IMG/VR virus record: IMGVR_UViG_3300020049_009119
Strand: one strand, 5' to 3'
DNA length: 64,000 nt
Origin: a virus
Shown piece by piece: positions 5,200 to 52,584 of the stretch. The notes beneath the pieces were generated by a model. It was given only the letters and a program-made list of their open reading frames with translations, had not been told where the DNA came from and ran no database searches. The stretch's first letter is position 1, and the number at the start of each line of letters is the position of its first letter. Position numbers and translations under genes: made by a program.

Positions 5200-5268
5200 C
5201 GTCGTAATCTCCGGGGCAACTCAGTTGGTAAAATCAGGCGGGAGGCACAGCCGCCGCGCGTGGGGCAA

Positions 5269-5595: not shown

Positions 5596-5635
5596 TGCTT
5601 TTTCCTCCGTTTGTTTTCTTTCTGGGGCGAGACGG

Positions 5636-5907: not shown

Positions 5908-5913
5908 ACTGGG

Positions 5914-5956
5914 ATAATAATTTCACCTGTGCGTGTAAGTCAATTACCAATGTACA
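5914..5956 (-). promoter_or_regulatory. Promoter of cro-like gene with adjacent operator-like site
   Basis: TTGACT (5943-5938) N18 TATTAT (5919-5914); AATGTACA at 5949-5956. Confidence 0.55.
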
Positions 5957-6009
5957 ACAAAGACAATTCGCAATGCATTTTGCCGGTATACACTGATCGT
6001 GTACGTCCT

Positions 6010-6492
6010 ATGTCTACCCCTCAAAATCAATTCGGTGAGTGGCTGCGAGCGTGGCGAAAAGAAGCTGATCTAGGCCAGGCCGCTCTTGGCAAAAAGGTTG
6101 ACGTAACCAAGCAGCATATCAGCAACTTGGAGCGCGGCGAGGTCAGCAGTTACACAGGCGAGGCAATTCGTCCAAGTTTTGACCTGACGCTAAAGCTGGC
6201 CAGGGTGCTGAAACGGCCAATTGGCGAGGCCTGCGCAATGGCTGGATATGACCTACCCGAAGGCGAAGCGCAGCCCCAGCCGCAAACCGTGGAAGAGGCT
6301 CTTCAGCAGGCTGGCCACCTCTCCTCCCTCTCCGAATCCCAACTCGCGCTCATCCGCCCGCTGCTCGCCGCCATAGATCAAACCGTGGATGCGCTGACCA
6401 GACAAATCCCCGGCGGTGCAACGGTAAAATCCGTCGTGGAGGCGACTCCCGCCGACAACCCAATAGAAGAACCGGAACGGAAACGAGCGTAA
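6010..6492 (+). CDS. CI-like XRE repressor (no peptidase domain)
   Basis: FGEWLRAWRKEADLGQAALGKKVDVTKQHISNLERGE HTH; next to integrase. Confidence 0.85.
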   Translation: MSTPQNQFGEWLRAWRKEADLGQAALGKKVDVTKQHISNLERGEVSSYTGEAIRPSFDLTLKLARVLKRPIGEACAMAGYDLPEGEAQPQPQTVEEALQQAGHLSSLSESQLALIRPLLAAIDQTVDALTRQIPGGATVKSVVEATPADNPIEEPERKRA

Positions 6493-6964: not shown

Positions 6965-8146
6965 TTACCCATCCAGTAACCGCTCAATCTCCGAATACCC
7001 CAGCGCATCCCGCAACCCGTGCAGCACGTCGCGCGCGAATGCCCGCACTTCCTCTGCCGTCTGGTCGCCATGTGGCTGGAGCAGGCCACGCAAATGCGCT
7101 GCCGTGAGATTTGAATAGCGCAACCATTCCCCCGACTGGTGCGAATGGCCCGACGCCTGAAGCGCCAGCGTGAGCGGCACACCGGCGAGGATTGCGCGGC
7201 TCACAAACGCGTGGCGCAGGTCATGCAGATGCAGCCCCTCCACCCCTGCCGCTGCTTTCACGTTCCGCCACGCCCGGCTTATATTCCGCGCGCCGAACAA
7301 CGGCCCGTCCGTCCACGTATCCACCACGCCGCGAAGCGCCGCATCTACCCGCGCCGTCATTGGCACCACACGCGCCTTGTTCGTTTTTGCATTGATTGCT
7401 CGCAGCCGAATTCGCCGCTGTTCAAAATCCAGATCATTTATCTCCAGCGTCAGCAGTTCGTTTCGCCTTAGTCCCGTATCGGCGGCGACGATAATCAGCG
7501 GGCGCAAATAGGCGCGCGGCCCGACACACGCGGTCAGCAGCGCTATTTCTTCGCCGAATGTCGGCAGACGGTCGCGGGCAACCTCGCCGCTGGTATCAAT
7601 CAGCCTCCCCGCTCCTGGCGCGCTGAATGGATTGGCGCGCAATTGGCCGTTGTGAACTGCATAGTTGAAAACTGTTTTCAGTAGCGCCAGCGCCCGATTG
7701 ATTGCGGCGAGCGAACGCGGGGCGCCGGTTCGGGTCGGCAGATCGGCCAGGTGGAGCCGGTAGGATTCGAGATCGGAATGTTTAATGGTGGTGATTTTCT
7801 TGGCCCCGAAATAGTTTTCAGCGGCGCGTAGGAACGATTCAGGCGCAGTGAGTTCCCGCCGCCCGGCGATTTTTCGCTCGCCAACATACCGCGCTGGAAT
7901 GAGTTTCTTTTTTCGGTATTCTGCCGCCAGTTGCGCAAAAGTCATCTGGCCGGAGCGCAGTGTGAGCGGCTCGACTTCGTGCTGATTCAGTAATTCGCGG
8001 AGCAGCTTCTGCGCCTCGGTTTTGCTTTGCGCATAGCGGCGCACCACCCGCTCCCGCCCGGTTTCCGGATCGGTGGGATTGATGCGGGCGCACCAGCGAT
8101 TCCGCAGCCGGTCGAACTTTACCGAGCCTTTGAGTGGTTTTGCCAT
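6965..8146 (-). CDS. int: Tyrosine integrase with N-terminal arm-binding domain
   Basis: TGLRRNE (R), NAKT (K), HDLRH, SGH, LRY catalytic motifs; GGAGG RBS before MAKPLKG. Confidence 0.92.
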   Translation of the reverse strand: MAKPLKGSVKFDRLRNRWCARINPTDPETGRERVVRRYAQSKTEAQKLLRELLNQHEVEPLTLRSGQMTFAQLAAEYRKKKLIPARYVGERKIAGRRELTAPESFLRAAENYFGAKKITTIKHSDLESYRLHLADLPTRTGAPRSLAAINRALALLKTVFNYAVHNGQLRANPFSAPGAGRLIDTSGEVARDRLPTFGEEIALLTACVGPRAYLRPLIIVAADTGLRRNELLTLEINDLDFEQRRIRLRAINAKTNKARVVPMTARVDAALRGVVDTWTDGPLFGARNISRAWRNVKAAAGVEGLHLHDLRHAFVSRAILAGVPLTLALQASGHSHQSGEWLRYSNLTAAHLRGLLQPHGDQTAEEVRAFARDVLHGLRDALGYSEIERLLDG

Positions 8147-20559: not shown

Positions 20560-22977
20560 ATGAGCGATTGTGACGTTTCAGCAATGGAAGAGTGGATGGC
20601 GCAGCCCGACATGCGAACCTGCGCCTGTGTATCCTTCGACGCTCAGCGGTGTTACGAGGTTCGGTACAACGTGGAATCTGAGGATAACGACGAGCGCGAA
20701 TCTTGTGAGTGCTCCTGTCACGATGATGAGGATGATGACTAATGCAACACGGTAAGCGAGTCCTTCACGGTTCGGGCTGTACAGAAACAAATAACGGACA
20801 GCATCTAATCGAAATAGACGAAGAGGCAGAGCGGGCGCACTGCGTTCAATGCGCCTTGATAATAGACCTGTCGCCGGTTTGTAAATGCGGCCATACCTGG
20901 CACGAGCACGCCAAGCCCGCGACCAAAATTAGTTGGGATGCGTGTAGTTTTCCGTGCTTGCAATGCGCTTGCTCGGAATACGATCAGGTTGTCGCCGGGA
21001 AGGAGGAAGTTTAATGCTAAGCCGATGTGATGGATGCCGTAAATCCACTTGCGACTGTGGCAAGCACGATATGATTATTGAAGTGCTGGGCTTCGATGCG
21101 AAGGTGCATTACCGCCGTGCCGCGAATGACCCTGACATTCTCGAAGCTCTGTCATCTCCTGGCTATGCCGTGCGCGGCAGTGTTGGTGCGTGGATGGTAA
21201 TTCAAGAGGCGGTTTGCGAGTCCAATCATTCGTTTGACATTCCGTTAAGAGTTGAGCGCGGGCGCTTTCTTGCGGGGCCGATTGGCGTGTCACCTGAAAA
21301 TCAAATGGACTTCTGGAAGCGCCTTTTTACTGAGAACGGATGCGGCGTGCTGGTTATCTAGCGCAACAAAACAACAATAATGATTCACTTTCTGATGGAA
21401 TCAATAGAATGAGAATTCACACCTGGAACGTACAACGCCGCATCTTTGGATTTACCGTCACAGCCCTGGGACTCGATTTTAACTTGATGCTGCGGACGTG
21501 GCGCTCACGCTGCTATTCGTATTTGAACGCAATCGGCAACCGTGAAAAGCAAATCAGCCAGGAAGGAATCGTCTTCGGAATAGTGGCGGGGTTGCTTGGC
21601 TTCTCTGTCGTATGGGAGGACGCTGATGAGCGTTTCGATGAAGGAACCGGCTATTTCATTGGGTAAGACAAACAGGAATTTCAAGGACGGAATAATTATG
21701 GCAATTGGGAAATCAAAAATCACATCTGAGCACAGAGAAAAAGCCAAAGAGGAAAAACTCTGCCTTTTTGAAATCTACGTTGACGCAAGACATGCTGAAC
21801 AGGCGTCCGCCGATAAGACTTGGCTTCAAGGTCTAAAAACGCTTTCCCTTGCCGGTGCCTGCACGGTGGCGGACGCTCATAAAATGATTGATACAATCTG
21901 GGGGCGCAACGAAAAGCGGAAGGCGTAACTATTTACCGCTAGCCCCCGCCGCCCCGCCCCGGCGCTCGGTGGCAGGCAGGCAACAAGGAGAATGAAATGA
22001 ACACAAACAAAGACGAACTTGCTTTTGCGCTATTCCGACGCGCCCTGATTGATAGCGTGGGAAAGCGGCGCATGGATTTGAATATCACCGGCAAGCAATC
22101 GCCCGTCTATGACTCCTATCGTGACGAATTGAATGAGCAAGGAATCAAAACGTCATGGTCAGCGGACGGGAAAACGCGAGCGTACTGGTATTCGCTGGCG
22201 GCAGAGGCGCTACGCCAACTGAACGGCGACCCTTTGACCGCACTGCCCAAGCCTTTAACGTGTTGGCAATGCAACGGAACGGGCAGATTATTTGTCGTTA
22301 CGGAAGAGGGGCTGCATCCACGCGCTGCAAAAGCGCAAGGCAAACTAGAAAGACAGGAATGCAATGCGTGTAACGGGACAGGCGCTCCGGGGATTGAGTA
22401 AGCCTATGCCCCGCACCGAAACCACCACAGTCCGCTGCGACCGCTGCCGCACCACCACCGCCATCATCGAGTACGTGCCGAGCGCGGGCTTCCTGGACGA
22501 GATCAGCGAGAAACTGCGGGCGCTTGGCTGGCGGGTGGCGGGGGGAGAGGTTTGTGGGGAGTGTGTGAGGGCGGAAGAAAAGGCAAGAAGGAGAACAAAA
22601 TGAGAGACGGACAACTTACACTTAAAGAGTTAAAGCAGCAGCTACGACAGCACGCTCCTGAAGCACTGGTCAGATACGACTTTGGCGAGCTTGTACCGGA
22701 TGGCTTTGGCAGCTATCGCGGCGACTATTCGCATCTTGCGCTCGGCTTTCGAGAGATGGACGGACGCAGTAAGAGCCAGACCGTTGCAGACCTTATCAAA
22801 GAGTGCGAAGAAGCGGACGGCCAGACCTTTCAAGGCTACAAAGGCCGCGACTTTAAGATGAATGGGCGAACGCCTGTTTGGGTGGCAAATTATGGGCATT
22901 CAACCGGAACCGTGATTGTCAGTGTGACGGGGGATGAGTTTATGGTGAGGCTGAACACTGCTTACCGGGATTATTGA
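20560..22977 (+). other. Cluster of small CDSs, several Cys-rich: 20560-20742, 20742-21014, 21014-21361, 21409-21666, 21698-21928, 21997-22401 (two CxxCxGxG motifs), 22406-22603, 22600-22977
   Basis: Co-oriented, RBS and overlap coupling; visibly lower GC in part. Confidence 0.7.
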
Positions 22978-23282
22978 CGGCCTGCCGATTCCCTGCCAAG
23001 CCTATACCACTTCTCCGCAATCTCCCGCGCCTTCTGCGCCGCCGCCTCGCTCATCTCCGGCTGATCCTTCATCCACGCCGCAATGGCCGCATGTAGATTT
23101 TCTTCCTCAGACTGGGTAACTACTTCCACACGATCCGGGACCACAATCCGCACCACTGGCGGCGGACAGGTGCGGACCACAGGCGGGCGGCGCCTCCCTG
23201 CTCGGTGCTTCTTGCGCTTGCGCGCTTCGGCGGGCAAGGCGAGCAGGCAGAGGCAGATGATTGTGAGGGTCAGTCTCACCAT
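22971..23282 (-). CDS. Exported small protein, last gene of tail operon
   Basis: Signal-like MVRLTLTIICLCLLALPAEA then basic and Pro-rich segment. Confidence 0.6.
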   Translation of the reverse strand: MVRLTLTIICLCLLALPAEARKRKKHRAGRRRPPVVRTCPPPVVRIVVPDRVEVVTQSEEENLHAAIAAWMKDQPEMSEAAAQKAREIAEKWYRLGRESAGRQ

Positions 23283-24943
23283 CAGCCCTCAATCACGCGA
23301 AAGCTATAACTGATCGCCTTCCGCGAATAGCCTTCGATGCGAATATCCGAATCCGTCCAAACCACGCGCCGCAGGCTGCGAATCTTGTCTTCGTAGATCA
23401 GCCGCTTGCCGGGGTGGTGGTCGTCCCAGAACGCCCGCGCCGCCTCAAACTCCGCCAGCAGCCGGTCGCGGAAGTTCAACTCAAACGCCTCGAAGGCTTC
23501 GTTGTTGTAGTCCTTCACACGGCTTGCTCGGCTTCGATCCTCTGCTCTGCTGACCAGCACGGACTTGCGCCGCTCAAAGCTGACCGTCTGGTTCGGGTCA
23601 TACGGAAAATGCTTCAGCACCAAAATCGTCGCCGTAACCGTATAGGTGCCATTGGTGGCGGTGACCAACGCCTCAAGCTGCGATTGGTTCGGCGCGGTCC
23701 AGGTGACAGTTGCGCCAGACGTGGCGCTGAGCGTGCCGAGGTCTTTTGTCCAGTTGATCGTACCGGGCATGTTGGTCGTGAGGGTTAGGACTTCGCCCAG
23801 TTTGGCCGCAGTGACCGCAACGCCGGTGCTGGTGGTAATTGTCATCACCGCCGGAACCGTGACCGTGATCGTTACTTCCTGATCGCCGTATTTCGCCAAC
23901 AAGACGGACGTTCCCGGCGCAGTTCCCGCCGTGTATTCGCCATTCGCAAAACTGCCGCCGCCGCTGTAGACCGACCAGGTGACGATCTTCGATGCGGCAT
24001 CGTCGTAATTGGTTTTGAATCGGTACTTCTCGCCCGGCTGAAGCGTCACGTCGGTCAGGCCCAGCACGGACAGCGGCGGGATGATCACCGTCGCCGTGAA
24101 GGTCTGGAGCGCTTGCGATGCCACCACGCAACTCAACGTGTACACGCCCGGTTGATTCCCTGCCGTGTATTGCACCTGCCAAACGTCCGTGCTGTCGTCC
24201 ACTGTGCCGCCCAGAGGCGTCCAGAGCGTATCCTGCGCGCTTTCCGTCGGGATAATGTCCCAGATGCCAGTCAGTACAGGCGTCGTGATCTTCGGTGTCG
24301 CGCTGTCTGCGGGTGGATCAAGGAAGATGCTGGCGCGCACCGGATATTCTGTGGGATCAGTGACTTCGTAGGTAACTTCCGTTGTGCCATTGATCGCCAG
24401 CCGGAAGATATTGCCGCTCACTTCCAGGTAAAACACGTCTCCCGCCGCCGTTGTGTGGCTGATCGTATCCAGCGGGTTGCCGTCGTTGTCATTTACCTGA
24501 ATTGAGGTCGGCGCGATAAACACCTGAAGGCCATTTGTAGGGATTCGCGCGCCAACGCCAAACAGGAACATCTGCAATTCTCCGCCCGTATCCGGCAGCA
24601 TGTCGGCGCTGATTGTCCACTGCACACCGGCAATGCCGGAATGAACGCGCGGCGCGATGATCCCGCCAAAGAGAGCCGCTGAATTGCGCGTCAGCGACTG
24701 ATCCGCTTCCAGGTCGGCAAAATCAATTTGATCCCAAAGCACTGGCGGCGGCGATGAGCGGAGCGTGAAGGTCTGCACATCGCCCGGCAGGACGGTGATA
24801 ATTTGCGGAAAGATTTCGGTCATTTTGGCCTCATTTCGTCGGATAACTGGTGCTTTGCGTTCGCCCGACCACGGACGCCATTGCGCGAACGCGCACGATG
24901 CAAAGCCGATCAGCGCGGCAAGGATAAAAAGTGTTTTTCTCAT
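23282..24943 (-). CDS. Tail protein: signal peptide, Ig-like repeats, C-terminal distal-tail (Dit/gpM-like) domain
   Basis: ATGA overlap with upstream gene; Thr/Val-rich Ig-like repeats (VTWSVYSGGGSFANGEYTAG); C-terminal 110 aa with Dit-like pattern (FELNF...FEAARAFW). Confidence 0.65.
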   Translation of the reverse strand: MRKTLFILAALIGFASCAFAQWRPWSGERKAPVIRRNEAKMTEIFPQIITVLPGDVQTFTLRSSPPPVLWDQIDFADLEADQSLTRNSAALFGGIIAPRVHSGIAGVQWTISADMLPDTGGELQMFLFGVGARIPTNGLQVFIAPTSIQVNDNDGNPLDTISHTTAAGDVFYLEVSGNIFRLAINGTTEVTYEVTDPTEYPVRASIFLDPPADSATPKITTPVLTGIWDIIPTESAQDTLWTPLGGTVDDSTDVWQVQYTAGNQPGVYTLSCVVASQALQTFTATVIIPPLSVLGLTDVTLQPGEKYRFKTNYDDAASKIVTWSVYSGGGSFANGEYTAGTAPGTSVLLAKYGDQEVTITVTVPAVMTITTSTGVAVTAAKLGEVLTLTTNMPGTINWTKDLGTLSATSGATVTWTAPNQSQLEALVTATNGTYTVTATILVLKHFPYDPNQTVSFERRKSVLVSRAEDRSRASRVKDYNNEAFEAFELNFRDRLLAEFEAARAFWDDHHPGKRLIYEDKIRSLRRVVWTDSDIRIEGYSRKAISYSFRVIEG

Positions 24944-26337
24944 GGCTCTAGTGCCTCTTGAATTGGTTTCTGCGCGTCGTCTGAATACAATTCCTGCCCC
25001 AGCACCAGCAGCGTGAATTCGCACTCGTCTGCGCTTTTTTCGGCGCTGTCTGGCGATGCGCTCAGCACCAGGCATTTTTGAAACGTGTAATTCAAAACAG
25101 GGTGAGTAATCGTCACGTAATCGCCCGGCAGGACATGCAGGCTCGTTCCGTCGCCGCGCAGTGTAATCGTTAGCGGGTTGTCGGATTCGATGCGAAGCTG
25201 CCGCTCCAATAATCTGAACGCCTGGCTGTAGTTCATATTCGGGAACGCCCGCTCCGACTTCACGATGCCGACTTTGGCAATCAACGCAGGCCGCTTGGCC
25301 ACCACCGAAACTTCAGTCAAAAACGGATCATCCAGGTCGCGGAACTTGGCCACCAGGTAATTCGGCCTGCTGCGAATATCAGACGGCGTTTGACTGACGC
25401 TCCCTGCGATAATATTGCTGCGCGTCCGGCTGGTTGGGTCGTAATGGAAATGGTGAACCGGATCGTGCGGCGCGGCAGTGACAAAGCTGAACTGCTCGCC
25501 GTCGTCCTGCCAGAATGCGCCCGCTGACGCCGTGATCTGGTCAAGCGCGCTTGCCAGGTCAACTGCGCCGGTAAAGACGACATGGCATTCAAAGCGCGCA
25601 ATATCTACCGTTGCCGTGCCATTATCCCAGCTAATTTCCTCTGCGCAGTCGTTCCGAAATTCGGTATAGCTTGCCCAGTTGACGCGGGCGCGGAAGAGGC
25701 TGAATGCCAGGTCTAAATCGTCCTCATAAAGCCGCTCGTAATGGGTGCGGATTCGGTCAACGGCGATGTCTGCCGGATTGACGGAATAGGCAAAGGTCAA
25801 TTCATTGCCGTGTTCGTCATAATCCCATACCTTTTTACATTTCGCCCGCCACACGAACTTATCCGGTCTGTCTTCCGTGCTGAACTTCTCCGGCAACTTG
25901 ACGGCCACATATGCCGTGCCACTGTAGGCGATGCCATCCGGCAAGAACGGATTGACCGGTTGCGTGGCGTCATTGATCGCCGTGCTGATCGTGCCGGGAT
26001 AGAAGAGCCAGCCGGGGCCAGACGCTACGGATTCGTCAATCTCTTCGCCCGCATACCAGGCCGTGACCACGCTTTCCCAAACGCCCTCCCCGCCTGCTTG
26101 AATGAAGATTGAGGACGGCGGCGGGCCTGCGGCGTATTTCGTGGCAAGCAGGTGGCCTTTTACCAGGTGTTCGCCAAAGGCGCAGGCCAGATCACCATCG
26201 GGGCCGGTGATAAGCTCTTCAAGTGCGGGCGCGCTGCTGCTTGCGCCGGTCGTGGAATCGCCGGAACCGCTGCCGTTGCCGGAGTCGCCGCCGGAAATTT
26301 CGGCCATTTTGTCGAGGATGTCAGAAAAAAGGCTCAT
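24940..26337 (-). CDS. Tail tip / baseplate hub protein (gpJ-like core)
   Basis: YSGTAYVAV, NPADIAVD, FECHVVF, GAFWQDDGEQF, VLPGDYVTITH. Confidence 0.75.
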   Translation of the reverse strand: MSLFSDILDKMAEISGGDSGNGSGSGDSTTGASSSAPALEELITGPDGDLACAFGEHLVKGHLLATKYAAGPPPSSIFIQAGGEGVWESVVTAWYAGEEIDESVASGPGWLFYPGTISTAINDATQPVNPFLPDGIAYSGTAYVAVKLPEKFSTEDRPDKFVWRAKCKKVWDYDEHGNELTFAYSVNPADIAVDRIRTHYERLYEDDLDLAFSLFRARVNWASYTEFRNDCAEEISWDNGTATVDIARFECHVVFTGAVDLASALDQITASAGAFWQDDGEQFSFVTAAPHDPVHHFHYDPTSRTRSNIIAGSVSQTPSDIRSRPNYLVAKFRDLDDPFLTEVSVVAKRPALIAKVGIVKSERAFPNMNYSQAFRLLERQLRIESDNPLTITLRGDGTSLHVLPGDYVTITHPVLNYTFQKCLVLSASPDSAEKSADECEFTLLVLGQELYSDDAQKPIQEALEP

Positions 26338-26340
26338 GCT

Positions 26341-29340
26341 TTACGTCCCGATCAACCCGTGACCTGCCGTGGCGTGCAGGTCGTCAATTAGTGCCTTCAG
26401 CCGCTCGCTCAATATCTGCACATGGTCGGCCAGCGCCTGCACCTCTGCCTGTGTGGGCGGGTTGCTGATCGTTGGCGCGCCATAGGTGGCGTAGGCTGTG
26501 CGCGCCGCCGTTCCACTTGCCGTTCCCCATCCGGTTTTTCGCGCACCGACTACTTGAAGATTTGTATGGCGAAGCGCGGTCCCGATAAAAACGCTCGCGA
26601 CTTCGGCGGAGGCGGAGCCGATGTTGATTGTGTTTGAAGTGGGAAGCGGGACAAGGTGCGCCCCTGAAACAATGCCCCAGGCGGCTGTGTTGTGGCCGTA
26701 GAGATGTAGGTCGTGATTGCTCACCATTCCCATAATTCCACGATCTGTTGATGGCGAGCCGGTGGCGATTGTGCCGATTCGCATATCAATCGTGTTCGTT
26801 GTGTCCGTGATGAATAGGTACGGATTGCCGCCCGCTTTCGCGATCGTGAAAGTAGTCCCGTCCCATGTAAAGTTGCTGCCACCTGAAAGCAGATTCGAGC
26901 CATTGCCTACACCGATGTAGGTATTTTGCAGGCTATTGACGGTCGGATAGGCGCTCAGCACGCGCCAGCCGGTGATTGAATAATCCGGCATCAGGATAAC
27001 CGCGCCGTAATTCTGACTGATCACGTAACTGCCGCCGTTAATGCTTTCGCCGCCCGCCGCGTTGACCGTGATGTTATTACTGGCCGCGTTGCCTGCCGCG
27101 TCGTAAATCAGAATCGGGCGCGGCGTGGCCTGCTCCCAGGTCGTTGACCAAAGCGTTACCGTTGCGCCCGCGCCAAAACTGCATGCAATCGCACGCGGGC
27201 CGGGATTGTTGTAAGTCTTCGCCCCAGTGATGGCATCGGTGGGCATAAAATCATCGCCGCGAAAGAGTTTCTCCATTCGCGTCGTCGTAGTGTTCCAAAA
27301 CTCCTGCACCTTGCTGCTGCTGCCGCTGATCGTTGGCCCCTGCCCCTGCGTCTTAACGCGCGGAATATCGTTCGCGTGAACAAAAGCCTGTTTGTAGTAG
27401 TAGCGCAGCCCGTTCGAGTCCTGCACGTTGCACTCATCATCAATCGAGGCGCGCCCAAACAGAGCAGGGAAAGCGCCCGCCGTGTCCAAGTCGCCTTGAA
27501 TGCCGACACTGTGCGCGCTCGTCACAGTTGCCGCCGTCGTAAAGCTATAGGCAGGCGTGCCGCGCGTGACCGTGTAATCCGTGGTCGTGCGACTCACCGC
27601 CGTCATTCGCTCGATATTGCCGCCTTCTTCAACGACCAATTCCCCCACCGTGCCGGACGGCGGAAAATTCAGAGTGTCGAGATTGCCGGTGATCGGAATC
27701 GTCGTGACGCTGTTATTGATTCCGGCGCTGAGCGTACTTGAGATGTGTTGCTTTGCGAATGTGCAGCGGCCAGAGAATTTCGCTTCTGAGTTGCGCAGTT
27801 CATAGACCGCGCCCTGATGGTAACTTTCAAAATTGCAATCAATGAAGTGCGCGAAGGCCGCGCCGTCTGACGAATCTCCGAATAACCCGTTTTTCTTGCC
27901 CAGCACGGCAATCCAACTTCCAGGCGGAACACTGTTGACGCCGTTGCAATTGATCAAGGTGATATTGCCCGCCTTGATCCTGAAGCCGACCGGGTTGGCT
28001 GAGCTGATCACGCCGGGATAGACGTTTTCCAGTAGAATGCCGGGCATATTGGCCGAATTGATTTCCACCGGATAGCCTTCGCAATCATCCACGAAAATAT
28101 TCTTGAAAACACTGGAAAACGTCGTGCCGATATACAACCCGCTGCCGCCGCAAAGCTCAATCGTCAGGTCGTGGACGTTGCAAAACAGCATGTCCGTTGG
28201 CCCGTCCACTTTTAGGCCGATTTGCCCGCTGCCCGCTGCTTTGTCGCCGCGAATCTTCAGATGGTGAATATTGCCGGAGCGAAAACTACCTGCGGAAAAG
28301 TCCAGGATCGGCGTATTGGCATCGCTCTTCAGGATCGTGAGCTTGTCGCCGTCGCCGAAAATCTCAACCTGCCCAGCCCCCGTCAATCCGCCCGGCACGT
28401 AATATTCACCCGCTGGCAAATAAAGCGCGCGGCCCGTGGATTCCGCCGCGTCAATCGCGTTCTGAATGGCCGTCGTGTCATCTGCTGAGCCGTCGCCGAC
28501 CGCCGCAAAGTCCGTAACTGCGTGGATGGCGTATTCGCGGCCCGCCGCCGATAAGTTCACGACCGTCTGATCATTCACCGAGTCATCCGAAACCGGCGCG
28601 CCGATGAACTGAATCGCCGTTCTTTGCAGGTAGGTGTCGGAACCGTCCTTGACCAACTGATTAACCGCCGGAACCGCCAGCCCCGCCGCACCCGCCACCG
28701 TCGCCTGGCTCTTGATATACGCATAGCCAGCAAAACGCGCCCGGTTATTCGTGCCAGAGTGCCGCGCTGAGCATCCGTCCGCGTGGTCAAGCAGGTAGTT
28801 GCACGTCAGGAAATCACTGGTTGAGCCGCATAACCAGCCCTTGAATCCGCCGACCACCTCAGCGCGGCAATTCCTCACCACCGGCTGTGACGCGCCGACG
28901 TTGAGCGCAGCGTAGGCATCGCTGACAAGCTGAAGCCGCGCCACATTCTCGTTTACGTCCACGCCGACAACTGCGCCGGTCAGGAGGTACTTGTGGAAGG
29001 TGGCCCCGCTGTCCACGTCGCGCCAGTAGCGGCCGAATCTCACCCGCGAACCGTAAAACGCCTCTGACGCGCCAATCAACTCAATCCCCAGCACCGTGTC
29101 CACGTTCTGCAAATCCACGGTCACGCGATCAGCGGCGCGCGTCAGCGATTGCTTGATTGCGCCGGTTTCGCGTAATTGCGCCGAGTGCTTCACGCCCGCC
29201 ACGGTCACAGGCGCGGTGGCAAAATAAAGCGTGCGCGGGCCGGTCGCATCATCTGGCAATGTCAGTTCCAGCGTGGAGTGCGTTTCGAGTGTGCCGCGCT
29301 TCAGCGCTTCGGCCAGGCCGGTTGGTAGCAGGCGAGACAT
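26341..29340 (-). CDS. gpL-like hub domain fused to pectin-lyase beta-helix tailspike/fibre
   Basis: N-terminal hub with four Cys (CRAE, WLCG, TCNY, GCSA); FAAVGDGSADDTTAIQNAID...LYLPAGEY; C-terminal coiled coil ending HGLIG. Confidence 0.78.
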   Translation of the reverse strand: MSRLLPTGLAEALKRGTLETHSTLELTLPDDATGPRTLYFATAPVTVAGVKHSAQLRETGAIKQSLTRAADRVTVDLQNVDTVLGIELIGASEAFYGSRVRFGRYWRDVDSGATFHKYLLTGAVVGVDVNENVARLQLVSDAYAALNVGASQPVVRNCRAEVVGGFKGWLCGSTSDFLTCNYLLDHADGCSARHSGTNNRARFAGYAYIKSQATVAGAAGLAVPAVNQLVKDGSDTYLQRTAIQFIGAPVSDDSVNDQTVVNLSAAGREYAIHAVTDFAAVGDGSADDTTAIQNAIDAAESTGRALYLPAGEYYVPGGLTGAGQVEIFGDGDKLTILKSDANTPILDFSAGSFRSGNIHHLKIRGDKAAGSGQIGLKVDGPTDMLFCNVHDLTIELCGGSGLYIGTTFSSVFKNIFVDDCEGYPVEINSANMPGILLENVYPGVISSANPVGFRIKAGNITLINCNGVNSVPPGSWIAVLGKKNGLFGDSSDGAAFAHFIDCNFESYHQGAVYELRNSEAKFSGRCTFAKQHISSTLSAGINNSVTTIPITGNLDTLNFPPSGTVGELVVEEGGNIERMTAVSRTTTDYTVTRGTPAYSFTTAATVTSAHSVGIQGDLDTAGAFPALFGRASIDDECNVQDSNGLRYYYKQAFVHANDIPRVKTQGQGPTISGSSSKVQEFWNTTTTRMEKLFRGDDFMPTDAITGAKTYNNPGPRAIACSFGAGATVTLWSTTWEQATPRPILIYDAAGNAASNNITVNAAGGESINGGSYVISQNYGAVILMPDYSITGWRVLSAYPTVNSLQNTYIGVGNGSNLLSGGSNFTWDGTTFTIAKAGGNPYLFITDTTNTIDMRIGTIATGSPSTDRGIMGMVSNHDLHLYGHNTAAWGIVSGAHLVPLPTSNTINIGSASAEVASVFIGTALRHTNLQVVGARKTGWGTASGTAARTAYATYGAPTISNPPTQAEVQALADHVQILSERLKALIDDLHATAGHGLIGT

Positions 29341-32300
29341 TATCTTGTCACCCCATTCCTTCGCCCCGCCCGTTGCGCGTTGGCTAAAATCTGTTGCCCG
29401 TCGTCCGTCTCTGCCGCGACCGCCAGCAGATCAACTGAATCATCCCGGCTCATGCTGTTCGTCACATAAACATTGATCACCGTTGGCCGCGCGCTCCCGC
29501 CGCCGGATTGCACCACGCCGCCGAATTGGAATGCCTGCCCGCCGTCAGAGGTCACCAAACCCGCGCCCGGCACGCCCGCTGCCGCAAACACGTCCGGCCC
29601 CGCCATTGATGCGATATTGCGCTGCTGCTGCACGGTGAGAACCATTTCCCTTGGGCTGAGCCAACTCAGCACCGTGTCCGCGCCGGTCGGCATTCCGGGC
29701 ACAATCCCGCCCGTGGCGAATTCGGGGACCAGTCGCAAGGCCGTTTTGCCGCGCAGTTTTTGCGCTTCGATTTCCGGCCCAACTTCGTCGTCAAACAGCC
29801 GCTTCAAGTCTGCCGTTTGGTTTTTGAGCCGTGATTCACGCACGCTTTTTGTTTTGAGCGTGTTGATTTGCTGGATGAATGTCTGGAGGATTTCGTTATT
29901 GAAAACCTGCCGCGCCTGCGCGCCGTCAATCTGATCGCTCGCCACCTGTTTGCGTAGATCGCGAATGGAATCAATGGCATCTTGGAGAAAATCGCCGCTG
30001 CTGGATTCATCCCGCTTTCGCTGCCGCGCGCGCCCAAGTAGGAAGATCGCGGGCAGGGCCGCTGCCGCCGCAATGGCGGTGATTGGGTTCGAGAACAACG
30101 GCGCGAGGAAGCCCAGGCCGGATAATGCGCCTCCTGCGCCGATAATGGCAGGCGCTGCCGTCAAACCAACGCCGAGCAAGCCGCCCGCTGCACCACCAAG
30201 TATTTTCGTGAGCGTGTCCGTTCCAAGCCCAGAGCCGAGGCCGACACCAAGCAGTGGGAGCAATCCGGCCAATGCGCCGCCGCCGGAGCCGGGCTTTAAG
30301 CCGAAACCAATTCCGCCAAATAGATTTTTCAGCCCCGCCAAACCTGCCGCGCCGCCGATTCCGCCCGCGCTTGGATTGATGCCCGACGTTCCGGGAAAGC
30401 CCAGGCCGTTGAACACGTTGCCGCTGAGTGCGGGCAAGCTGAGCGATGCGGGCGCAGAAGGCCCGCCACCGCCACCAAGCAAACGCTGAAAGATGCCGCC
30501 GATTCCGCCGCCTGAATTGCCGCCGCCAAGCAGTGCCGCCGCTGGATTGCCGCCTGCGAATCCGCCCGTCAGAATCCCGGAACCGGGAACGCCGGACTGC
30601 GACGATCCGAATAGATTGGCGATGTTCAGCCCGCCGCCGCCGCCTTGCTGCTGGTTGCCGCCGAAGATGCCTCCCAGAATTCCACTGAGATTGAAGCCGC
30701 CACCGCTTGCGGGCGCTGCACCGCCGCCGCCGGGATTGCCCAGTCCAAACAGTTGCGAAATCACCTTGCGCGTCAGGCTTTTCAGAATGTCGCCGATCAG
30801 GTCTTTGAAGAAGCCGAACTTCTGCGTCAACTTGTCAATGCCGCCATCCAGCACGCCGAGGAACTTATCTTTGAAGTTGCTTCCGATCCGCTCGAACGCT
30901 TCAGCCGTGGTTTCGGCTTCGCTGCGCAGTCCCTTGAAGAAGGCTTGTGCGGGGGTGAGTTGTTGGCCGAAGGTGGCGAGTTTCTGGATTTCCAGATTGA
31001 GCCGCGCCAGTTTTTCAGGGTCGGTTTCGAGCCGTCTTTGCGCTTCCAGTGAGCCAATCAGCACATCACGCAATTGCCGCTGAATCGCAAGCGTGGCTTC
31101 CTTGCCCTGCGCCTCACTGATCACGCCAAGCGCAATGGCTTGCTGAATCTGCACTTCCTGCTGTTGTACAGCGAGGTCTTCTACGCGCGCCGCACGCTCC
31201 AGGTCACGGGCGCGCCGGATTTGCGCCTGCGCCTCCGCTACGCGCGGGTCAATCGTTTGCGCAATTAAATCCGTGGGTAGTTGGCCCGATGCCTCGCCGC
31301 TTGGCAGCGCCAGTTTTTGCAAATCCGCCAGCAGTTCAATCTTTTTCTTCTGCGCCGCGTCCAGGAATCGCAACTGATTCTCCGTCTCCGCATCCGTCAG
31401 CGCCCGCGTTTTCAATTCCAACTCTGTGCGCAGCTTCAGCAATTCGCCCTCAAGCCTGATCTTCTCCGGCGTGCCAGCTTTTGCGGCGCGTAGATTCTCC
31501 TGCGTGGCCTGGATTTCCTGCTGAATGATATTGATCGAGTTCCCGATGCTCGACTGCTCAATGCCAATCTTCGTTTCGTAAAACTCCCGAATGGAAATTT
31601 CCTCATTGCTGAACCGTTCCTGCACCGCCTTCAATTCGCGTTGATTGGCGTCTTCGACCAGGCGCAATTGCTGGTCAAGGGTTTCTTTGGTGAAGCGGAG
31701 TTGCGCCTCGCGCAGTTGGCGCGCCTTTGATTCGGCAGATTCGCCGCCGCTGCCGCCAAGCTTCGCCCCTGCGCCGCGCGCCTTCGCCTCTTGCAATCGA
31801 AGGTTATTCCCGGCCAAATCCGCCGCCGTGATCTCTTCGCCGTCCAGCCCGCGCCCCTGGCTGGCCGCTCTTGCACTCTCCCGCGCCTTGTCGCGGTCGG
31901 CGAAATTGCCGCGCAGTTTATCCGCCGTCGAAACCACACCACGAATCAGCGCGACGGTGGAGGGGAACAGCCCGACAATTGCATCCTTGATGCCGGTCAT
32001 GATGGACGTTCCCAGCGATTCGCCAACCGCTTGCGCAATGCCACCGATGTTTAATAACCGCCGGATGCCGCTTACCACCACATCATAGAGCGCGAGCAAT
32101 GCGCGGTTCGGAACCAGAATGATAAACTCCCACGCCTGCCGCCACGATTGGCTGATCCGCTCGCCGAACGTCTCAAAATCGCCGCGCGCGAGCGCCAGCA
32201 TTGCCCGAATCAGCGGCCCGATGAAGTCTGCCGCCTCGCGTGTTGTCGTTTTGATCACTTCCCATGCGTTGCGGTAGATCGTGCCAATCGTCCCGGACCA

Positions 32301-33872
32301 CGTTTCAACTAGAAACTGAATCGCGGCCAAAACCGGCTGAAGAATCGCCAGCAAATCGGGCGCAATTTCGCGCCAAAACGCCCGCAATTCCGCGAACTGT
32401 GCGCCCACTTCCGTCAGCACGTCCCGCGTCAAGTCCCGAATGCCGCCGAAATTGGTTGCCCATGCTGCACTGAGCGCACCGAGCGCGGCGATGATCGGCA
32501 GGATGATCGGCGCAAGCGTGGCTAACATGCCCGCAATGCCCGCCGTGCCACCCGCGCCCGCAATCACGGTGATAATGTTGCCAAATGCGCCGAATGCCTG
32601 AATCAGTCCACCGATGGCAATGATCAACGGCCCAGCGGCAGCGGTAATGGCGGCGAAGATGAGAATTAACTGCTTCGCGCCGCTGGGAAGCTCCGCAAAA
32701 GCCTTTGAAAGCCGCTCGATAATCGGCACGGCACGCTCAACCAACGGCTGCAATGCCTCGATCAGCGCCAGCCCCAGCGGACGGAAAGCGACGGTCACGC
32801 GGTCACGCAATTTCTCGAACTGCGTTCCGATGGATTCTGTTACGCCTGCAAGTTTTGAGTTTGATGATGCGGCCTGCGCGAACGCGGCGAAGAATTCTTC
32901 CGTGGTGTCAATGCCCAGTTTTTTGGCGCTTTCCCGGATCGCGGCTGCGTTGGTTGCGTTGTCCACGCCGAAGATTTGCTTGATCAGTTCACCTGCGAGC
33001 GGCGATTGGCCCACCAATTCTTTCAGGTCGGCGCGCTCAAAGCCCTGCGTCACCAACTGCACGAGGTTGCCCGCGAATCGCTGCGGATCGCCAAGCGGAG
33101 AGACGGCGTTGAGCTTGCCGAGTGCAGGCAGGATTTTATCAATCGTGCTGACCGTCACATTCGCCACGCGAAGCTGCGCATCCAGCGTTGCGGCCAGCGA
33201 CGCCGTCAGGCCCGGCGATTTCTGCGCAGTGGCGACCAGTTGCGCAAAGCGCGCCTCTGCTGCCTCCGCCGATCCGGTCAGCGATTTCAACACGTTGACT
33301 TGCCGGTCAATATTGATGGCAGACGTTACAGCCGAACGGCCAAAGGCAATCAGGCCAGTGGTCAGGCCCGTCAGTGCGAATCCGGCTTGCTGGATTGATT
33401 CGCCCGCTTCCCGAATTGTGGAACTGAACCGGCGAAAAAACGCCAACGCGCCGGTATTATTCGCCGCGCGTTCCAGTTTTCGTTGCCGCTCGATTTCCCG
33501 TTGCGCAAACCGTTCGCGCAATACATCCAGGTCTGCTTGCTTCTTGGCTTCAATCTGCGCAAGTCGTCCGGCGGTTCTCGTCGCCTCCGTCTCAAGACGC
33601 GCATTCGCCCGCAGTGCTTCCTGTTGGAGCTTGGCCGCGTCCGCCGCCGCTTTCGCACCCGCTCGCGCACGGATCGCGTCAATCGTGGCCTGATTGCGGC
33701 GCACGGCTTCCTCTGTCCCGGCAGACAGCGCATCGCCGATTTTCTTTCCAGTGGCGCGTAGGCCGTCCGTGCCGGAATCCAGCGCGTTTTGCAGGCCGCT
33801 TTTCAGCTTCCGCGCAAAGGCGGCAATATCTGGCTGACCAAGTTCAACTCTGATTACAATCGGTTCTGCCAT
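29340..33872 (-). CDS. Tape measure protein (about 1510 aa)
   Basis: Long Ala/Gly-rich helical protein; tape-measure domain (FAQLVATAQKSPG...DLKELVGQ); FATGG motif; start MAEPIVIRV. Confidence 0.92.
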   Translation of the reverse strand: MAEPIVIRVELGQPDIAAFARKLKSGLQNALDSGTDGLRATGKKIGDALSAGTEEAVRRNQATIDAIRARAGAKAAADAAKLQQEALRANARLETEATRTAGRLAQIEAKKQADLDVLRERFAQREIERQRKLERAANNTGALAFFRRFSSTIREAGESIQQAGFALTGLTTGLIAFGRSAVTSAINIDRQVNVLKSLTGSAEAAEARFAQLVATAQKSPGLTASLAATLDAQLRVANVTVSTIDKILPALGKLNAVSPLGDPQRFAGNLVQLVTQGFERADLKELVGQSPLAGELIKQIFGVDNATNAAAIRESAKKLGIDTTEEFFAAFAQAASSNSKLAGVTESIGTQFEKLRDRVTVAFRPLGLALIEALQPLVERAVPIIERLSKAFAELPSGAKQLILIFAAITAAAGPLIIAIGGLIQAFGAFGNIITVIAGAGGTAGIAGMLATLAPIILPIIAALGALSAAWATNFGGIRDLTRDVLTEVGAQFAELRAFWREIAPDLLAILQPVLAAIQFLVETWSGTIGTIYRNAWEVIKTTTREAADFIGPLIRAMLALARGDFETFGERISQSWRQAWEFIILVPNRALLALYDVVVSGIRRLLNIGGIAQAVGESLGTSIMTGIKDAIVGLFPSTVALIRGVVSTADKLRGNFADRDKARESARAASQGRGLDGEEITAADLAGNNLRLQEAKARGAGAKLGGSGGESAESKARQLREAQLRFTKETLDQQLRLVEDANQRELKAVQERFSNEEISIREFYETKIGIEQSSIGNSINIIQQEIQATQENLRAAKAGTPEKIRLEGELLKLRTELELKTRALTDAETENQLRFLDAAQKKKIELLADLQKLALPSGEASGQLPTDLIAQTIDPRVAEAQAQIRRARDLERAARVEDLAVQQQEVQIQQAIALGVISEAQGKEATLAIQRQLRDVLIGSLEAQRRLETDPEKLARLNLEIQKLATFGQQLTPAQAFFKGLRSEAETTAEAFERIGSNFKDKFLGVLDGGIDKLTQKFGFFKDLIGDILKSLTRKVISQLFGLGNPGGGGAAPASGGGFNLSGILGGIFGGNQQQGGGGGLNIANLFGSSQSGVPGSGILTGGFAGGNPAAALLGGGNSGGGIGGIFQRLLGGGGGPSAPASLSLPALSGNVFNGLGFPGTSGINPSAGGIGGAAGLAGLKNLFGGIGFGLKPGSGGGALAGLLPLLGVGLGSGLGTDTLTKILGGAAGGLLGVGLTAAPAIIGAGGALSGLGFLAPLFSNPITAIAAAAALPAIFLLGRARQRKRDESSSGDFLQDAIDSIRDLRKQVASDQIDGAQARQVFNNEILQTFIQQINTLKTKSVRESRLKNQTADLKRLFDDEVGPEIEAQKLRGKTALRLVPEFATGGIVPGMPTGADTVLSWLSPREMVLTVQQQRNIASMAGPDVFAAAGVPGAGLVTSDGGQAFQFGGVVQSGGGSARPTVINVYVTNSMSRDDSVDLLAVAAETDDGQQILANAQRAGRRNGVTR

Positions 33873-33935
33873 TGCGTTTTCCTGCTCTGCCGTGAATAAT
33901 CCGCTGCCATCGGCCCCAAAGGAGAAAACTCTACC

Positions 33936-34511
33936 GTGAAAATCTTTTTGCTCACTCTCGCGCTGTGCGTCTCTGCCGCCGCGCAATCGCTGACCGCGAC
34001 CACGCCGGACGGCAAGCAAGTGATCCTGAATCCAGACGGCACTTGGAAATTTGCCGCCGCTGATTCGTCCGCCACGTTGTCAATCGAAGCCGCCTTGATT
34101 TATCAATCCGGCGACGTGAAACCCGCTGCGCGAACTGCCTTCTATCTGCTGGATGAGTCGCCGCTTGATATTCTGACCGCTGCGAAAGTGCAGCCGGTGC
34201 AAGGTGTCGGCGACTCCAACCCACAAACGCGCATCCTGTTCAACCTGGCGCGTCTGCAATCCGCCCGCTGCGATGATTGCCCGCGATTTGCTGCCGATGT
34301 TCAAAAAGCAATCGCGCCGCATACCGTGAAGGCCATTGCTACCGGCTTTGACGGCAAGGGCGTCTTCGATTCCGTCAAGCCTGGCACGTATCACCTGTAC
34401 GGCAGTTGGTCAGTTGGAGAGAACAGCGTCCTGTGGATTTCCAAGATTGAACTGAAGGTCGGAGCCACCAACATCAAGCTTGATCAGAACAACGCGGCGC
34501 TCGCCTTTTAA
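33936..34511 (+). CDS. Exported moron protein on the antisense strand of the tail operon
   Basis: AAAGGAG RBS; signal peptide ending VSAAA-Q; ATTPDGKQVILNPDGTWK (DUF3157-like). Confidence 0.8.
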   Translation: MKIFLLTLALCVSAAAQSLTATTPDGKQVILNPDGTWKFAAADSSATLSIEAALIYQSGDVKPAARTAFYLLDESPLDILTAAKVQPVQGVGDSNPQTRILFNLARLQSARCDDCPRFAADVQKAIAPHTVKAIATGFDGKGVFDSVKPGTYHLYGSWSVGENSVLWISKIELKVGATNIKLDQNNAALAF

Positions 34512-47826: not shown

Positions 47827-50145
47827 TTAATTGCAAAGCCGGACGCGCCAACGGGAAGAAGTCCCGTCATAGCGAAGCTCGGCACACTTCTTCGGCGTAA
47901 GAGTCAAATCCGCTGCCGTGCTGGTCAGGAAGCGATTCGCGGCAGTGCTGGCGGTTGTGCTGGATTCGTCTTGAATGACGATGTTGTTTGAGCCGACATT
48001 CCAGATTTCGGCGACCTGTCCATCTACGCCCGCGACAAGTCCAGTGAGATTGCGGGAGGCGTCGGAAGCGAGTCGGATAAACCAGCCCGTACCCGGACTG
48101 TAGTTGTTTTGATCGGCGGTGATTTGGGCGGGAGATGTTGCGGGCGATGAAATTGCCGATGAAGACCCAAAGGCGATGCCGCCCGTTGAACGGGTAATCG
48201 TGATCGGCGTTGACAGTAGCGAACCCGCATCGGAATAAGCTTGAATGACGTAATCGCTGCCTGTGTTGCTGCCGGATTCAGCAGTGATCGTGCCAACGCT
48301 AAATCTAGTGACCCCCGAAGTACGATATAAGATTCTTCGATTTGGATTGGCCGCGTTGCTGGTAAGGGCAAAACTGGGCGCATTGCTTCCTGCTTGGGTC
48401 AGAATACCTGTTGAGCTGACCAAGGATAGCGCAGTCGCCGACTGTCCAAGCTGCCAGTTGCTCCCGGTGTTATCTACCGAAAAGACTTGCGTTCTACCGC
48501 CCCCATTCACAGAACCCCACAGCGTCCAGTTTCCAGTCGGCACGACTGCCCCTTGAACGGTTTGTAATTCAGCGTCGAAATCCACATCCTGCGCCGCTGC
48601 TGTGGCGTTCGTCTTCCAGCCCGACCCATGCCAGCGCAGACGCGGGCTCCACTGCTGTGCGCCTGCGGCTGCGGCTGTAGTGTTCGTGAGTAAAATCCCG
48701 TCAGTAGTGGTTACACCGATGGAATCCCGCTTAAACGTCTGGGCGTTACCACTCCACGTATGCGCCCCAGACCAATTGTATGTCGCCGTCTGATCCACAC
48801 TCGCACTTGGCGTTGCCCACGTCCCATCCCCTCTCCAAAACGTCGAACTGCTCGCGCTTGTGCCGGAATTCAGATTGCCAACCGGCAGATTACCTGTCAC
48901 GCCGCCGGAACCAGGCGCCGCCAGATCAATCGCGTTGACGGTGACGGTGTTGACCGTGCGCGTCAGCCCCGTGCTGAATGTGATCGGTACTTCGTAATCC
49001 GTGCCCGCACTCGCTGCTGAAACCACGCCGCTGCCGTTGGCCTTCAATAGCCCATTGACCGTCCCAGCCCCGCCGTAGTTACTGCCAATAACACTGCCAT
49101 TCCACGTACCTGCCGCAATCGTGCCGAGCGTAGTCAGATTGGTCGAACCGGCCCAAGTGCTGAGCGCGGTATTTTCGACGTTGTTCAACGCGAGGTCGGT
49201 CTTCAGTTGCGCAATCGTGCGATTCGTCCACGCACCGGCTTTGCGCTGGAGAATGTCATCGTCGGTCGGCGTCAGTCCGGCAATCGCGGCCAAATCCGCG
49301 TTGTAGGCTTGTACATTCGTGCCAATCGCCACTCCAAGCGTGGTGCGCGCCGTGCTCGCGTCCGTCTCGGTGAGCAGGCCGCGCCCGAAGCTCGTTGTGG
49401 TGAGCGCTGCAATGCTGGTCAGGTCGCTATCCAGCGGCTGATAGACGCTGGATAGGTCAGGAATATCCGCCGCAACCAATGCGCGAAACGTTGGCGTGGC
49501 GGCCGCGCCAGAGCCGGGGCCGGAATAGATGCGATTGGCGGATTGGGCAGTGAATGCGGCCTGCTTCGCGTCGAGCGCGCTTTGCAAATCTGTCTGGTCG
49601 GAGAGTGTGCCGGTAATGCTTCCCCAGGTTCCAGCGCCGCCGCTGCTAATTGTGATCGTGGCGACGCCTGCGGTAGTTTCGGTGGCGGTCACTCCCGCGC
49701 CCGTAAATTTCAGCGTCGTTACCGGGCTGGCAAAAGCAACCGCCTCGTCATAAACCGTGAAGCCGCCCGTGGGAAAACTCACAACGGTGGTGAGATTTTG
49801 GAATAGGGCGCTGCTGGCGTTCGGAATTGTTTTGGCAGTTGCTCGGTTGCAATCGGACGACATGCCGGAAATCACAGAGCTATTCGGCGAACAAAACCAC
49901 GCGGTTGAACTGCGCGGCAGAGTTAAGGACCACGTTCCATCCACGGCACTGGTGGCTTCAAGGCGCACATTGGCGTTGATGTTGCTGCCCGATTGAGTGA
50001 CGCGCACCACGCGGATTTTCACGCCGGATTTGACCGCGCCGTCGAGGGCATAGACTGTACCGGAGATTTGCGCGGTAGATAGTTGAGCACTGGCTGAGAC
50101 GGCCAAGGACGCAAGGAAGATCAGAGTAATAAAAAAGCGTTTCAT
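47827..50145 (-). CDS. Tail-fibre-like protein with Sec signal peptide
   Basis: [21 protein letters not shown], then lambda Stf-like N-domain ([10 protein letters not shown]...DGTWSLTLP) and Gly/Ser/Thr fibre repeats ([31 protein letters not shown]). Confidence 0.75.
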
Positions 50146-51492: not shown

Positions 51493-52584
51493 TTACCTCA
51501 CCATAAATCCCTGCGATTCGTGATACCCGCCCGCTGGCGCAAACACCCTCACCACCGCCCCAATCTCACTCCGCCACAAGTCCGCCGTGGGAATTCTGAA
51601 TGTCAGTTGTTCCAGTCCGGCAAAACTCGCACTGCCCACATGGACCGAGGGAAACACTCGGCCATTGCCCAGCCGTAATTCCGCCTGCGTCCCTTTCACT
51701 CCCGTCCCATAAAGCAAAAAGAAAACCTGCTCACTGCCATTCAGCGCGGGCAGATTGTTGAAGTAGTTGAAACCCCCGCTCGGATAAATCACCAGCCACA
51801 GGCTTGCCGCCCGGCCTTCGCCGTTGGCAGACGCGGTAAAAATCCCCGGCGCTTGCGGATTGATCTGAGCGCGGCCTGTGAAGCGCGCCACGCTTCCGCG
51901 AGTGCTGTTCACCACAACCGGAACTTCGGTCGGTCCTTCGGGCAACCAATCGGGCAGAAGGAAATTCACCTGTCCCGGCGCAACCGCGAGCAGTTCGCAG
52001 GCGCTGCCGTTGATTTCCACTGTGACGCCTGCAAGCGTGGTCGGGAGGCTGAAAGATGCCGCCTGCTCTGCGCGGTCAGTAAAGGTCGTGTTGGGATCAG
52101 GGAAAATGCTGGCCAATGATCCGCGTGATACTTGGCCGCGAAAGTTGGCGGAAGAGACAATCGAAACGCCTGCATTCGCGCCGCCACTGCACAGGCCGCA
52201 GCTTGGCGTGTGTGGGGCTGGGCTGATCCGGCTGGTCGTGGTGCAACTTGCGCCGGATTTCATAATCTGCGTCACTTCAAGCTGGCTCGACCACTGGCAC
52301 GTCACATCGTCACGCACGGCTTGAATTGCGCTGCCGGGCAGGGTTTGCCGAACGCCGTCTGCCGTCCATCGCACTTCGTAGCGGTCAATGAGCGTGCTGG
52401 ATTGGGTGTTGAGAAAGCGAATTGAAAGCCGGTTGCATGAGCCGGTGGCATTGACGCTGCCTTGGAAGATTGGTGGGGAACAGGTTTGCGCGCTCGCCAT
52501 CACACTCAGCGCCACCAGTGCCAGGGCGGCGAGAATGAAATAAACAGTGCCGAGAATAAGAAAATCACGCTTCCATTTCATCAT
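51493..52584 (-). CDS. Exported protein with FN3-like domain and Solibacter-type C-terminal domain (TIGR03437-like)
   Basis: Signal peptide ending VMASA-Q; SIVSSANF...GSLASIF...LPTTLAGVTVEING...APGQVNFLLP...APGIFT...LYGTG. Confidence 0.85.
   Translation of the reverse strand: MMKWKRDFLILGTVYFILAALALVALSVMASAQTCSPPIFQGSVNATGSCNRLSIRFLNTQSSTLIDRYEVRWTADGVRQTLPGSAIQAVRDDVTCQWSSQLEVTQIMKSGASCTTTSRISPAPHTPSCGLCSGGANAGVSIVSSANFRGQVSRGSLASIFPDPNTTFTDRAEQAASFSLPTTLAGVTVEINGSACELLAVAPGQVNFLLPDWLPEGPTEVPVVVNSTRGSVARFTGRAQINPQAPGIFTASANGEGRAASLWLVIYPSGGFNYFNNLPALNGSEQVFFLLYGTGVKGTQAELRLGNGRVFPSVHVGSASFAGLEQLTFRIPTADLWRSEIGAVVRVFAPAGGYHESQGFMVR

Follow-up and report, generated by a model that had tools for sequence, protein, structure and literature searches.

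A conserved signal-peptide leader precedes the ancestral start of a phage distal tail gene and probably yields cytoplasmic and exported forms

The DNA analyzed here is a 64,000-nucleotide viral sequence (IMG/VR record IMGVR_UViG_3300020049_009119), termed the window. It represents a long-tailed phage, with genes for terminase, portal, capsid, tail tube, tape measure, a tailspike-bearing tip protein and a gpJ-like protein, and it also carries integrase-family genes. The tail-tip region occupies positions 23282-34019 of the minus strand and has an unusual gene order that recurs in most related loci. The tape measure gene (29340..34019 as the listed ORF, although the real start is probably a later ATG) is followed by a tail-tip gene with a pectate-lyase-like tailspike part and no signal peptide (26341..29340), then by a gpJ-like tail-tip gene (24940..26337; phrog_31, E = 2.9e-15), and last by an ORF of 553 amino acids (24943-23282), which is the subject of this report. 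No signal peptide is found in the tube, tape measure or gpJ-like proteins of the window.

Elsewhere on the minus strand, the gene at 51493..52584 encodes a TIGR03437-like protein with a signal peptide. Its named relatives belong to Blastocatellia, Bryobacteraceae and other Acidobacteriota, and solely on this basis the host appears to be a member of the Acidobacteriota. A search of genome contigs produced five matches, all of them partial (31-230 residues).

The ATG at 24943 shares the sequence ATGA with the TGA stop codon of the upstream gpJ-like gene (465 amino acids), and this outer start is translationally coupled to that gene. A Shine-Dalgarno-like GAGG (24954..24957, minus strand; duplex energy -5.8 kcal/mol) lies 10 nucleotides before this outer start, within the 3' end of the upstream gene. 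The gene opens with a leader of 40 codons. Its first 20 residues (24884..24943) form a predicted Sec/SPI-type signal peptide, consisting of a basic n-region (MRK), an uncharged h-region with an 11-residue Kyte-Doolittle peak of 2.8, and an A-x-A motif with predicted cleavage between AFA and Q (residues 20/21); there is no lipobox. These features were scored by hand criteria, and the signal-peptide call combines this heuristic with conservation and pN/pS values. As a gauge of chance, 625 open stretches of 40 codons that begin with ATG were scored across the window, and just 5 of them satisfy this heuristic. The next 20 residues (24824..24883) form a linker that begins with Gln and contains a second GAGG (24832-24829), which sits 5 nucleotides upstream of an in-frame ATG at codon 41 (24821..24823). 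In the AlphaFold model, residues 1-40 are disordered (pLDDT below 50). A first-pass annotation of this locus had noted the ATGA overlap, a textbook signal peptide at ATG 24943, and a second in-frame ATG at 24823 with its own ribosome-binding sequence, and the n-, h- and c-regions and codon positions described above agree with it.

The frame of the gene is also open upstream of 24943, giving a 597-amino-acid ORF that starts at 25075. This longer reading was rejected, because its extra part overlaps the upstream gene and is not conserved, the frame being closed in relatives. An out-of-frame mini-ORF of four codons (24820-24834, minus strand), whose TGA overlaps the inner ATG, is present in the related locus L039 and absent from L006, and it probably arose by chance.

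Beyond residue 40 the protein is modeled with confidence (mean pLDDT 87). Foldseek searches with the full model were swamped by tandem Ig proteins, so residues 443-553, which with the stop codon correspond to 23282..23617, were modeled alone (pLDDT 91). The best match for this domain is lambda gpM (8iyk_M; Z 12.9, rmsd 2.3 Å, 107 of 109 residues aligned), and other matches include the equivalent proteins of T1 (Z 11.3), GTA (Z 10.9) and T5 (pb9; Z 8.9). A second structure search also recovered gpM (TM 0.79, E = 1.3e-4). The predicted structure contains an Hcp/tail-tube-like beta-sandwich with an E-loop and a flanking helix, as is characteristic of Dit domains. The phrog_14 profile is matched by 7 of 62 family members (best E = 7e-5), and the window protein itself matches no PHROG or Pfam entry. 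No family in Pfam, PHROGs or NCBIfam corresponds to the whole protein, the Dit domain has no sequence match in the PDB, and no match to the protein was found among GenBank phages.

N-terminal to the Dit domain are Ig-like all-beta domains (residues ~229-442; 23618..24259), with boundaries inferred from secondary structure, and a ConA-like/SPRY-type beta-sandwich (residues ~66-228; 24260..24748) that resembles GH16 enzymes, PRYSPRY domains and lectins (Z 11-13.7; TM 0.68-0.78). This sandwich is a putative carbohydrate-binding domain; the ConA-like fold is equally common to SPRY protein-binding domains. It had been overlooked in the first-pass annotation, which recognized the Ig-like repeats and proposed that the last ~110 amino acids are Dit/gpM-like, both of which are upheld by structure prediction and structure searches. 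Neither the window nor the related record G001 contains a second match to a profile of the Dit domain. Because only one Dit gene is present, it must supply the Dit protein of the virion. On the strength of the model, therefore, 24943-23282 is the sole Dit gene of a siphophage and encodes lectin-like and Ig-like domains ahead of Dit. In lambda, gpM assembles into a hexameric ring through which the tip is attached to the tube, and it belongs to the tail initiator (PMC10721106). Given the gpM fold and the single Dit gene, the window protein presumably forms such a hexameric ring in the virion.

The mature protein lacks both a transmembrane segment and a lipobox. The absence of a transmembrane segment rules out a membrane-anchored adhesin, and the surface adhesin suggested by the first-pass annotation is thus unlikely in any surface-anchored form. 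The mature protein contains one Cys, and the mature parts compared contain 0-4, which rules out disulfide formation as a rationale for export.

The gene has roughly 85 strong homologs. Most of 34 full-length homologs have a start at the position of Met41. At least 13 relatives whose DNA was checked lack the leader, and their genes start within a few bases of the upstream stop. Comparison with these leaderless relatives therefore indicates that ATG 24823 is the ancestral start. An in-frame leader with n-, h- and c-regions and Gln at +1 is present in six lineages for which DNA is available. Its length is 40 codons in the window and L039, 38 in L006 and L011, 39 in L007, 41 in L036 and L037, 37 in L014, L030 and L031, and 29 in the distant L043. 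The linker start Q-W-R-P-W is kept in three lineages, and the linkers of the window, L006 and L007 resemble each other at the DNA level (z 4-8). Frame disruption in homologs, which the first-pass annotation had named as evidence against its proposal, is seen in none of the six lineages. Assembled contigs from four runs reveal no joint and no indel in the leader region, although contigs drop rare variants.

Four further cases (L042, P0005, P0029 and P0068) are counted as uncertain. The L042 leader overlaps the upstream gene by 53 nucleotides, fails the heuristic and has a weak inner site; its signal-peptide-like segment (8001-8053, plus strand) is overprinted on the last 53 nucleotides of the gpJ-like gene and reflects either independent origin or chance. 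Overlap with an upstream gene can by chance yield a hydrophobic in-frame stretch, as in L027, where the candidate leader lies within the upstream gene and was discounted. In P0029, P0206, P0207 and P0068 the Met is retained, but the leader ahead of it has W-C or G-C as its last residues where the others have A-Q; these are possibly lipoprotein-type versions of this arrangement.

In a tree built from the mature parts, leader-bearing genes fall into separate clades. Constraining them to one clade is rejected by the AU test, with p = 0.0013 when P0005 is treated as leader-bearing (its contig has only 19 upstream bases, which are linker-like) and p = 8e-56 without P0005 among the leader-bearing rows. 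This scattered distribution allows for repeated gain, repeated loss or recombination.

The leader evolves much as the rest of the gene does. Its pN/pS values are 0.03/0.17 against L039 (0.02/0.30 for the mature gene) and 0.30/0.75 against L006 (0.20/0.61 for the mature gene); counts are small, at about 38 codons per pair. At 0.5 changes per site, 0.5% of neutral simulations still yield a signal-peptide-like leader, and at 1.0 the share is 0.06%. The similarity of these pN/pS values to those of the mature gene, coupled with the rarity of neutral survival, indicates that the leader is kept as a translated, signal-peptide-like sequence. Sequence comparison thus suggests that it is under purifying selection. 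The leader conservation that the first-pass annotation proposed to check therefore extends to six lineages, in frame and under selection, but not to most relatives.

The inner start is likewise retained. A start codon occupies the ancestral inner position in all six leader-bearing lineages, and in L007 it is GTG. Because an internal GTG is read as Val, the property conserved is start status rather than a Met residue. In leaderless genes the ribosome-binding site for Dit is provided by the end of the upstream gene, and in leader-bearing genes a separate site lies within the linker. Duplex energies of the inner sites in the six lineages, with the window listed first, are -5.6, -8.5, -9.3, -6.6, -5.9 and -4.5 kcal/mol. 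Compared with 474 internal ATG or GTG codons, these sites have a combined p of 0.013-0.019 when three related lineages are collapsed and 1e-4 when they are not, in samples that are small and partly related. The window site is modest by itself, in that ~10% of internal ATG or GTG codons have one as good (p about 0.1). In L006 and L007 the site is built from the Arg codons AGA and AGG, whereas the mature parts use these two triplets for only 2 of their 164 Arg residues. As a control, eight signal-peptide fiber-like proteins of the same phages, including the window protein at 47827-50145, were scanned over codons 16-75, and none has an inner start whose site reaches -4 kcal/mol.

A possible source of the leader is suggested by L026, whose Dit (70% identical) lies within the leader-bearing clade. 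At the leader slot, L026 has a complete gene of the TIGR03437 family (5220-6011, plus strand; 263 amino acids) with a signal peptide. This gene overlaps the GTG start of Dit, and its 3' end provides a strong Shine-Dalgarno sequence for Dit. Its signal peptide resembles four of five leaders at the DNA level (z 3.5-5.0), whereas no resemblance to the linkers is seen at its 3' end (z <= 1.2). Relatives of the same gene lie directly downstream of Dit in L030, L034, L036 and L040. Because a TIGR03437-family gene occupies the slot in L026 and neighbors Dit elsewhere, the leader was probably captured from an adjacent secreted-protein gene, and the L026 arrangement is likely an evolutionary intermediate. 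Alternatively, a domain may have been inserted into the L026 leader. Both histories leave room for selection to have acted later on the fused form.

The conserved leader in front of a kept ancestral start is a real arrangement, and it probably specifies two forms of the protein, one inside the cell and one exported. We consider it probable that the gene provides a cytoplasmic form for the tail and an accessory, exported lectin-Ig-Dit protein. The sequence comparisons thereby support the suggestion in the first-pass annotation that one gene may make both a virion isoform and an exported isoform. Initiation at ATG 24823, directed by the Shine-Dalgarno sequence in the linker, would produce a cytoplasmic form of 513 amino acids. 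This form would assemble into a hexameric ring between tail tube and tail tip, with the lectin-Ig arms outside. Re-initiation at ATG 24943 by ribosomes that have just terminated at the upstream stop would produce a precursor of 553 amino acids, which would be exported through Sec and cut by signal peptidase I before Gln21. The product would be a soluble periplasmic form of 533 amino acids that is released at lysis. We infer export and cleavage from the leader sequence and from selection on it. The absence of the leader from most relatives implies that the exported form is accessory.

The exported form would most likely bind something outside the cytoplasm. As a decoy, it could cover glycans or receptors on a host cell undergoing lysis and thereby keep progeny from being trapped. 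It could instead serve as a dock for the exported fibers of these phages, one of which is encoded in the window (47827..50145, minus strand); this fiber-like protein carries a signal peptide but lacks an inner start preceded by a Shine-Dalgarno sequence. However, the leaderless L008, L009 and L034 still encode signal-peptide fibers, which implies that exported Dit is not needed for fibers. In phage lambda, side-fiber N-domains bind the gpV/gpM junction (PMC12617516). The fiber N-domains here, encoded at 49759-50085 in the window, have weak matches to T5 p132 (E = 0.048) and, in one member, to phage_tail_N (E = 0.014), which serve as leads only. A more elaborate scheme is morphogenesis in two compartments, in which fibers would fold in the periplasm and not attach to the Dit/tube junction until lysis, and some lineages would export Dit as tail-less, lectin-armed rings (fiber scaffolds or released decoys) with the internal start supplying the virion. 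We regard this scheme as speculative and somewhat unlikely.

Three other explanations were weighed. The leader might be a vestige of a secreted-protein gene that was inserted between the gpJ-like and Dit genes and then internally deleted, such that only the inner start matters and the exported product is waste. The L026 locus, where a complete TIGR03437-family gene with a similar signal peptide and a strong Shine-Dalgarno sequence for Dit fills the exact slot, is consistent with such a history; one deletion would yield signal peptide, linker and new site together, and the patchy distribution of the leader fits as well. However, the window, L006 and L007 have the fused leader in common, and it remains in frame and signal-peptide-like while synonymous sites are near saturation, an outcome with less than 1% neutral survival. 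An in-frame deletion would also be needed separately in each lineage, and the linkers do not resemble the 3' end of the L026 gene. A vestigial leader is thus unlikely.

It is also conceivable that both starts are used and the exported copy has no job. The leader would then maintain coupling to the upstream gene and divert surplus Dit, of which six copies are needed per virion, from the cytoplasm. This proposal accounts for selection on both the signal peptide and the inner start without an outside function, and it accommodates the coupling of the outer start to the upstream stop and the ability of leaderless relatives to manage without an exported form. However, the dose could presumably be lowered more cheaply, through a less efficient ribosome-binding site or a short ORF in another frame, and the linker is conserved at the sequence level (Q-W-R-P-W in three lineages), so we judge this proposal quite unlikely. 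Finally, only the outer start might be used. In that case, all Dit would be exported and the tail tip finished outside the cytoplasm, or the leader would not be a true export signal and would be cleaved or tolerated in the cytoplasm. The fiber-like proteins that have a signal peptide and lack an inner start suggest that some virion-type parts are made only as exported forms. Nevertheless, Dit lies between tube and tip as part of the tail initiator (PMC10721106), its partners (tube, tape measure and gpJ-like protein) lack signal peptides, and the inner start and its site are conserved even through the change from ATG to GTG. Exclusive use of the outer start is therefore highly unlikely, and production of two forms remains the reading that we favor.

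The C-terminal domain of the window protein is similar in fold and nearly equal in length to lambda gpM and the T1 distal tail protein (8iyk_M, 9l9p_H; PMC10721106), and in both lambda and the window it is encoded alongside tape measure and gpJ-like genes in the tail-tip module of a siphophage. In contrast to gpM, the Dit domain here is C-terminal to ~400 residues of lectin-like and Ig-like domains. Its gene comes after the gpJ-like gene rather than after the tape measure gene, and differs further in its signal peptide and its two starts.

In the evolved Dits of phages that infect Gram-positive hosts, the extra module is usually inserted within Dit. Evolved Dits with carbohydrate-binding modules have been described for skunaviruses and streptococcal phages, where, as proposed for the protein here, a Dit ring domain is combined with a putative carbohydrate-binding module that would aid adsorption (PMC10688798, PMC7533335). 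The window protein is an evolved Dit in the same sense, to judge from the lectin/CBM-fold domain in its model. The accessible parts of those reports, which concern phages of Gram-positive hosts, describe no export signal or second start. Very large evolved Dits also occur among the relatives: in P0065, P0066, P0077, P0081, P0082, P0091, P0093 and P0095, the Ig-Dit module is C-terminal in proteins of 1600-2300 amino acids.

A similar gene design is found in Enterobacter cloacae Tli, where a signal sequence and downstream in-frame starts are proposed to give periplasmic and cytoplasmic proteoforms that differ in function (bioRxiv 10.1101/2023.03.28.534661), and in other dual-location candidates (reviewed in PMC13515050). 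The Dit gene has in common with this design a conserved in-frame inner start codon whose ribosome-binding site is above background. However, the known candidates are bacterial immunity or effector proteins, and none named is a virion structural protein. A possible functional analog of the decoy is the T5 protein Llp, which is periplasmic and prevents superinfection as well as nonproductive adsorption to the debris of lysed cells (PMC9586334). Whereas Llp is dedicated to its task, a small lipoprotein that acts on FhuA, the exported Dit would be one isoform of a tail protein and would carry a putative lectin domain, and no sequence or fold relation between the two was seen.

Tail parts of tailed phages are assumed to be built entirely in the cytoplasm, and a selected export signal on a core ring protein of the tail tip is therefore unexpected. 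In the literature searched, which largely excluded subscription papers, we found no report of a signal peptide, or of a signal peptide paired with an internal start, in a core tail protein. The Dit gene also offers a natural control for the puzzling signal peptides of Acidobacteria phage fibers. The fiber at 47827-50145 has the same signal style as the Dit leader, with Gln at +1. It is a peripheral protein without an inner start, whereas Dit is a core ring protein that keeps its cytoplasmic start. If such signals do take proteins out of the cytoplasm, a signal-bearing part that is needed there should keep a second start and fibers should not, as is observed.

Gln at +1 is invariant in the leader alignment (A3), and it recurs at this position in many further signal-peptide proteins of these phages. 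Gln following the SPI site is the Q-rule of Bacteroidetes substrates, where the host has a glutaminyl cyclase (PMC5837995). The leaders here have this Gln, but the apparent host phylum, Acidobacteriota, is unmentioned in that paper.

Signal-peptide fiber-like proteins with a common N-terminal domain are encoded in the window, L008 (12934-15921), L009 (13427-16042), L030 (7892-10705), L034 (10911-13433) and L043 (7039-9681), and none has a Shine-Dalgarno-preceded inner start. The fiber gene is upstream of terminase in the window and in G001, and follows Dit in the others. Two small minus-strand genes lie after the window fiber gene (47188-47532 and 47535-47792), the former encoding a protein with a signal peptide, Gln at +1, and CxxC near its end. 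Directly after Dit, a gene at 22971-23282 (minus strand) encodes a protein of 103 amino acids whose N-terminus resembles a signal peptide and runs into a strongly basic segment; it is conserved in L006, L011 and L026 and matches no family. In one subclade, four small genes (132-159 amino acids) separate the gpJ-like gene from the tape measure or tailspike gene (L030, 2080-3798; L034, 4684-6390; L040, 4936-6612), an insert that is absent from the window.
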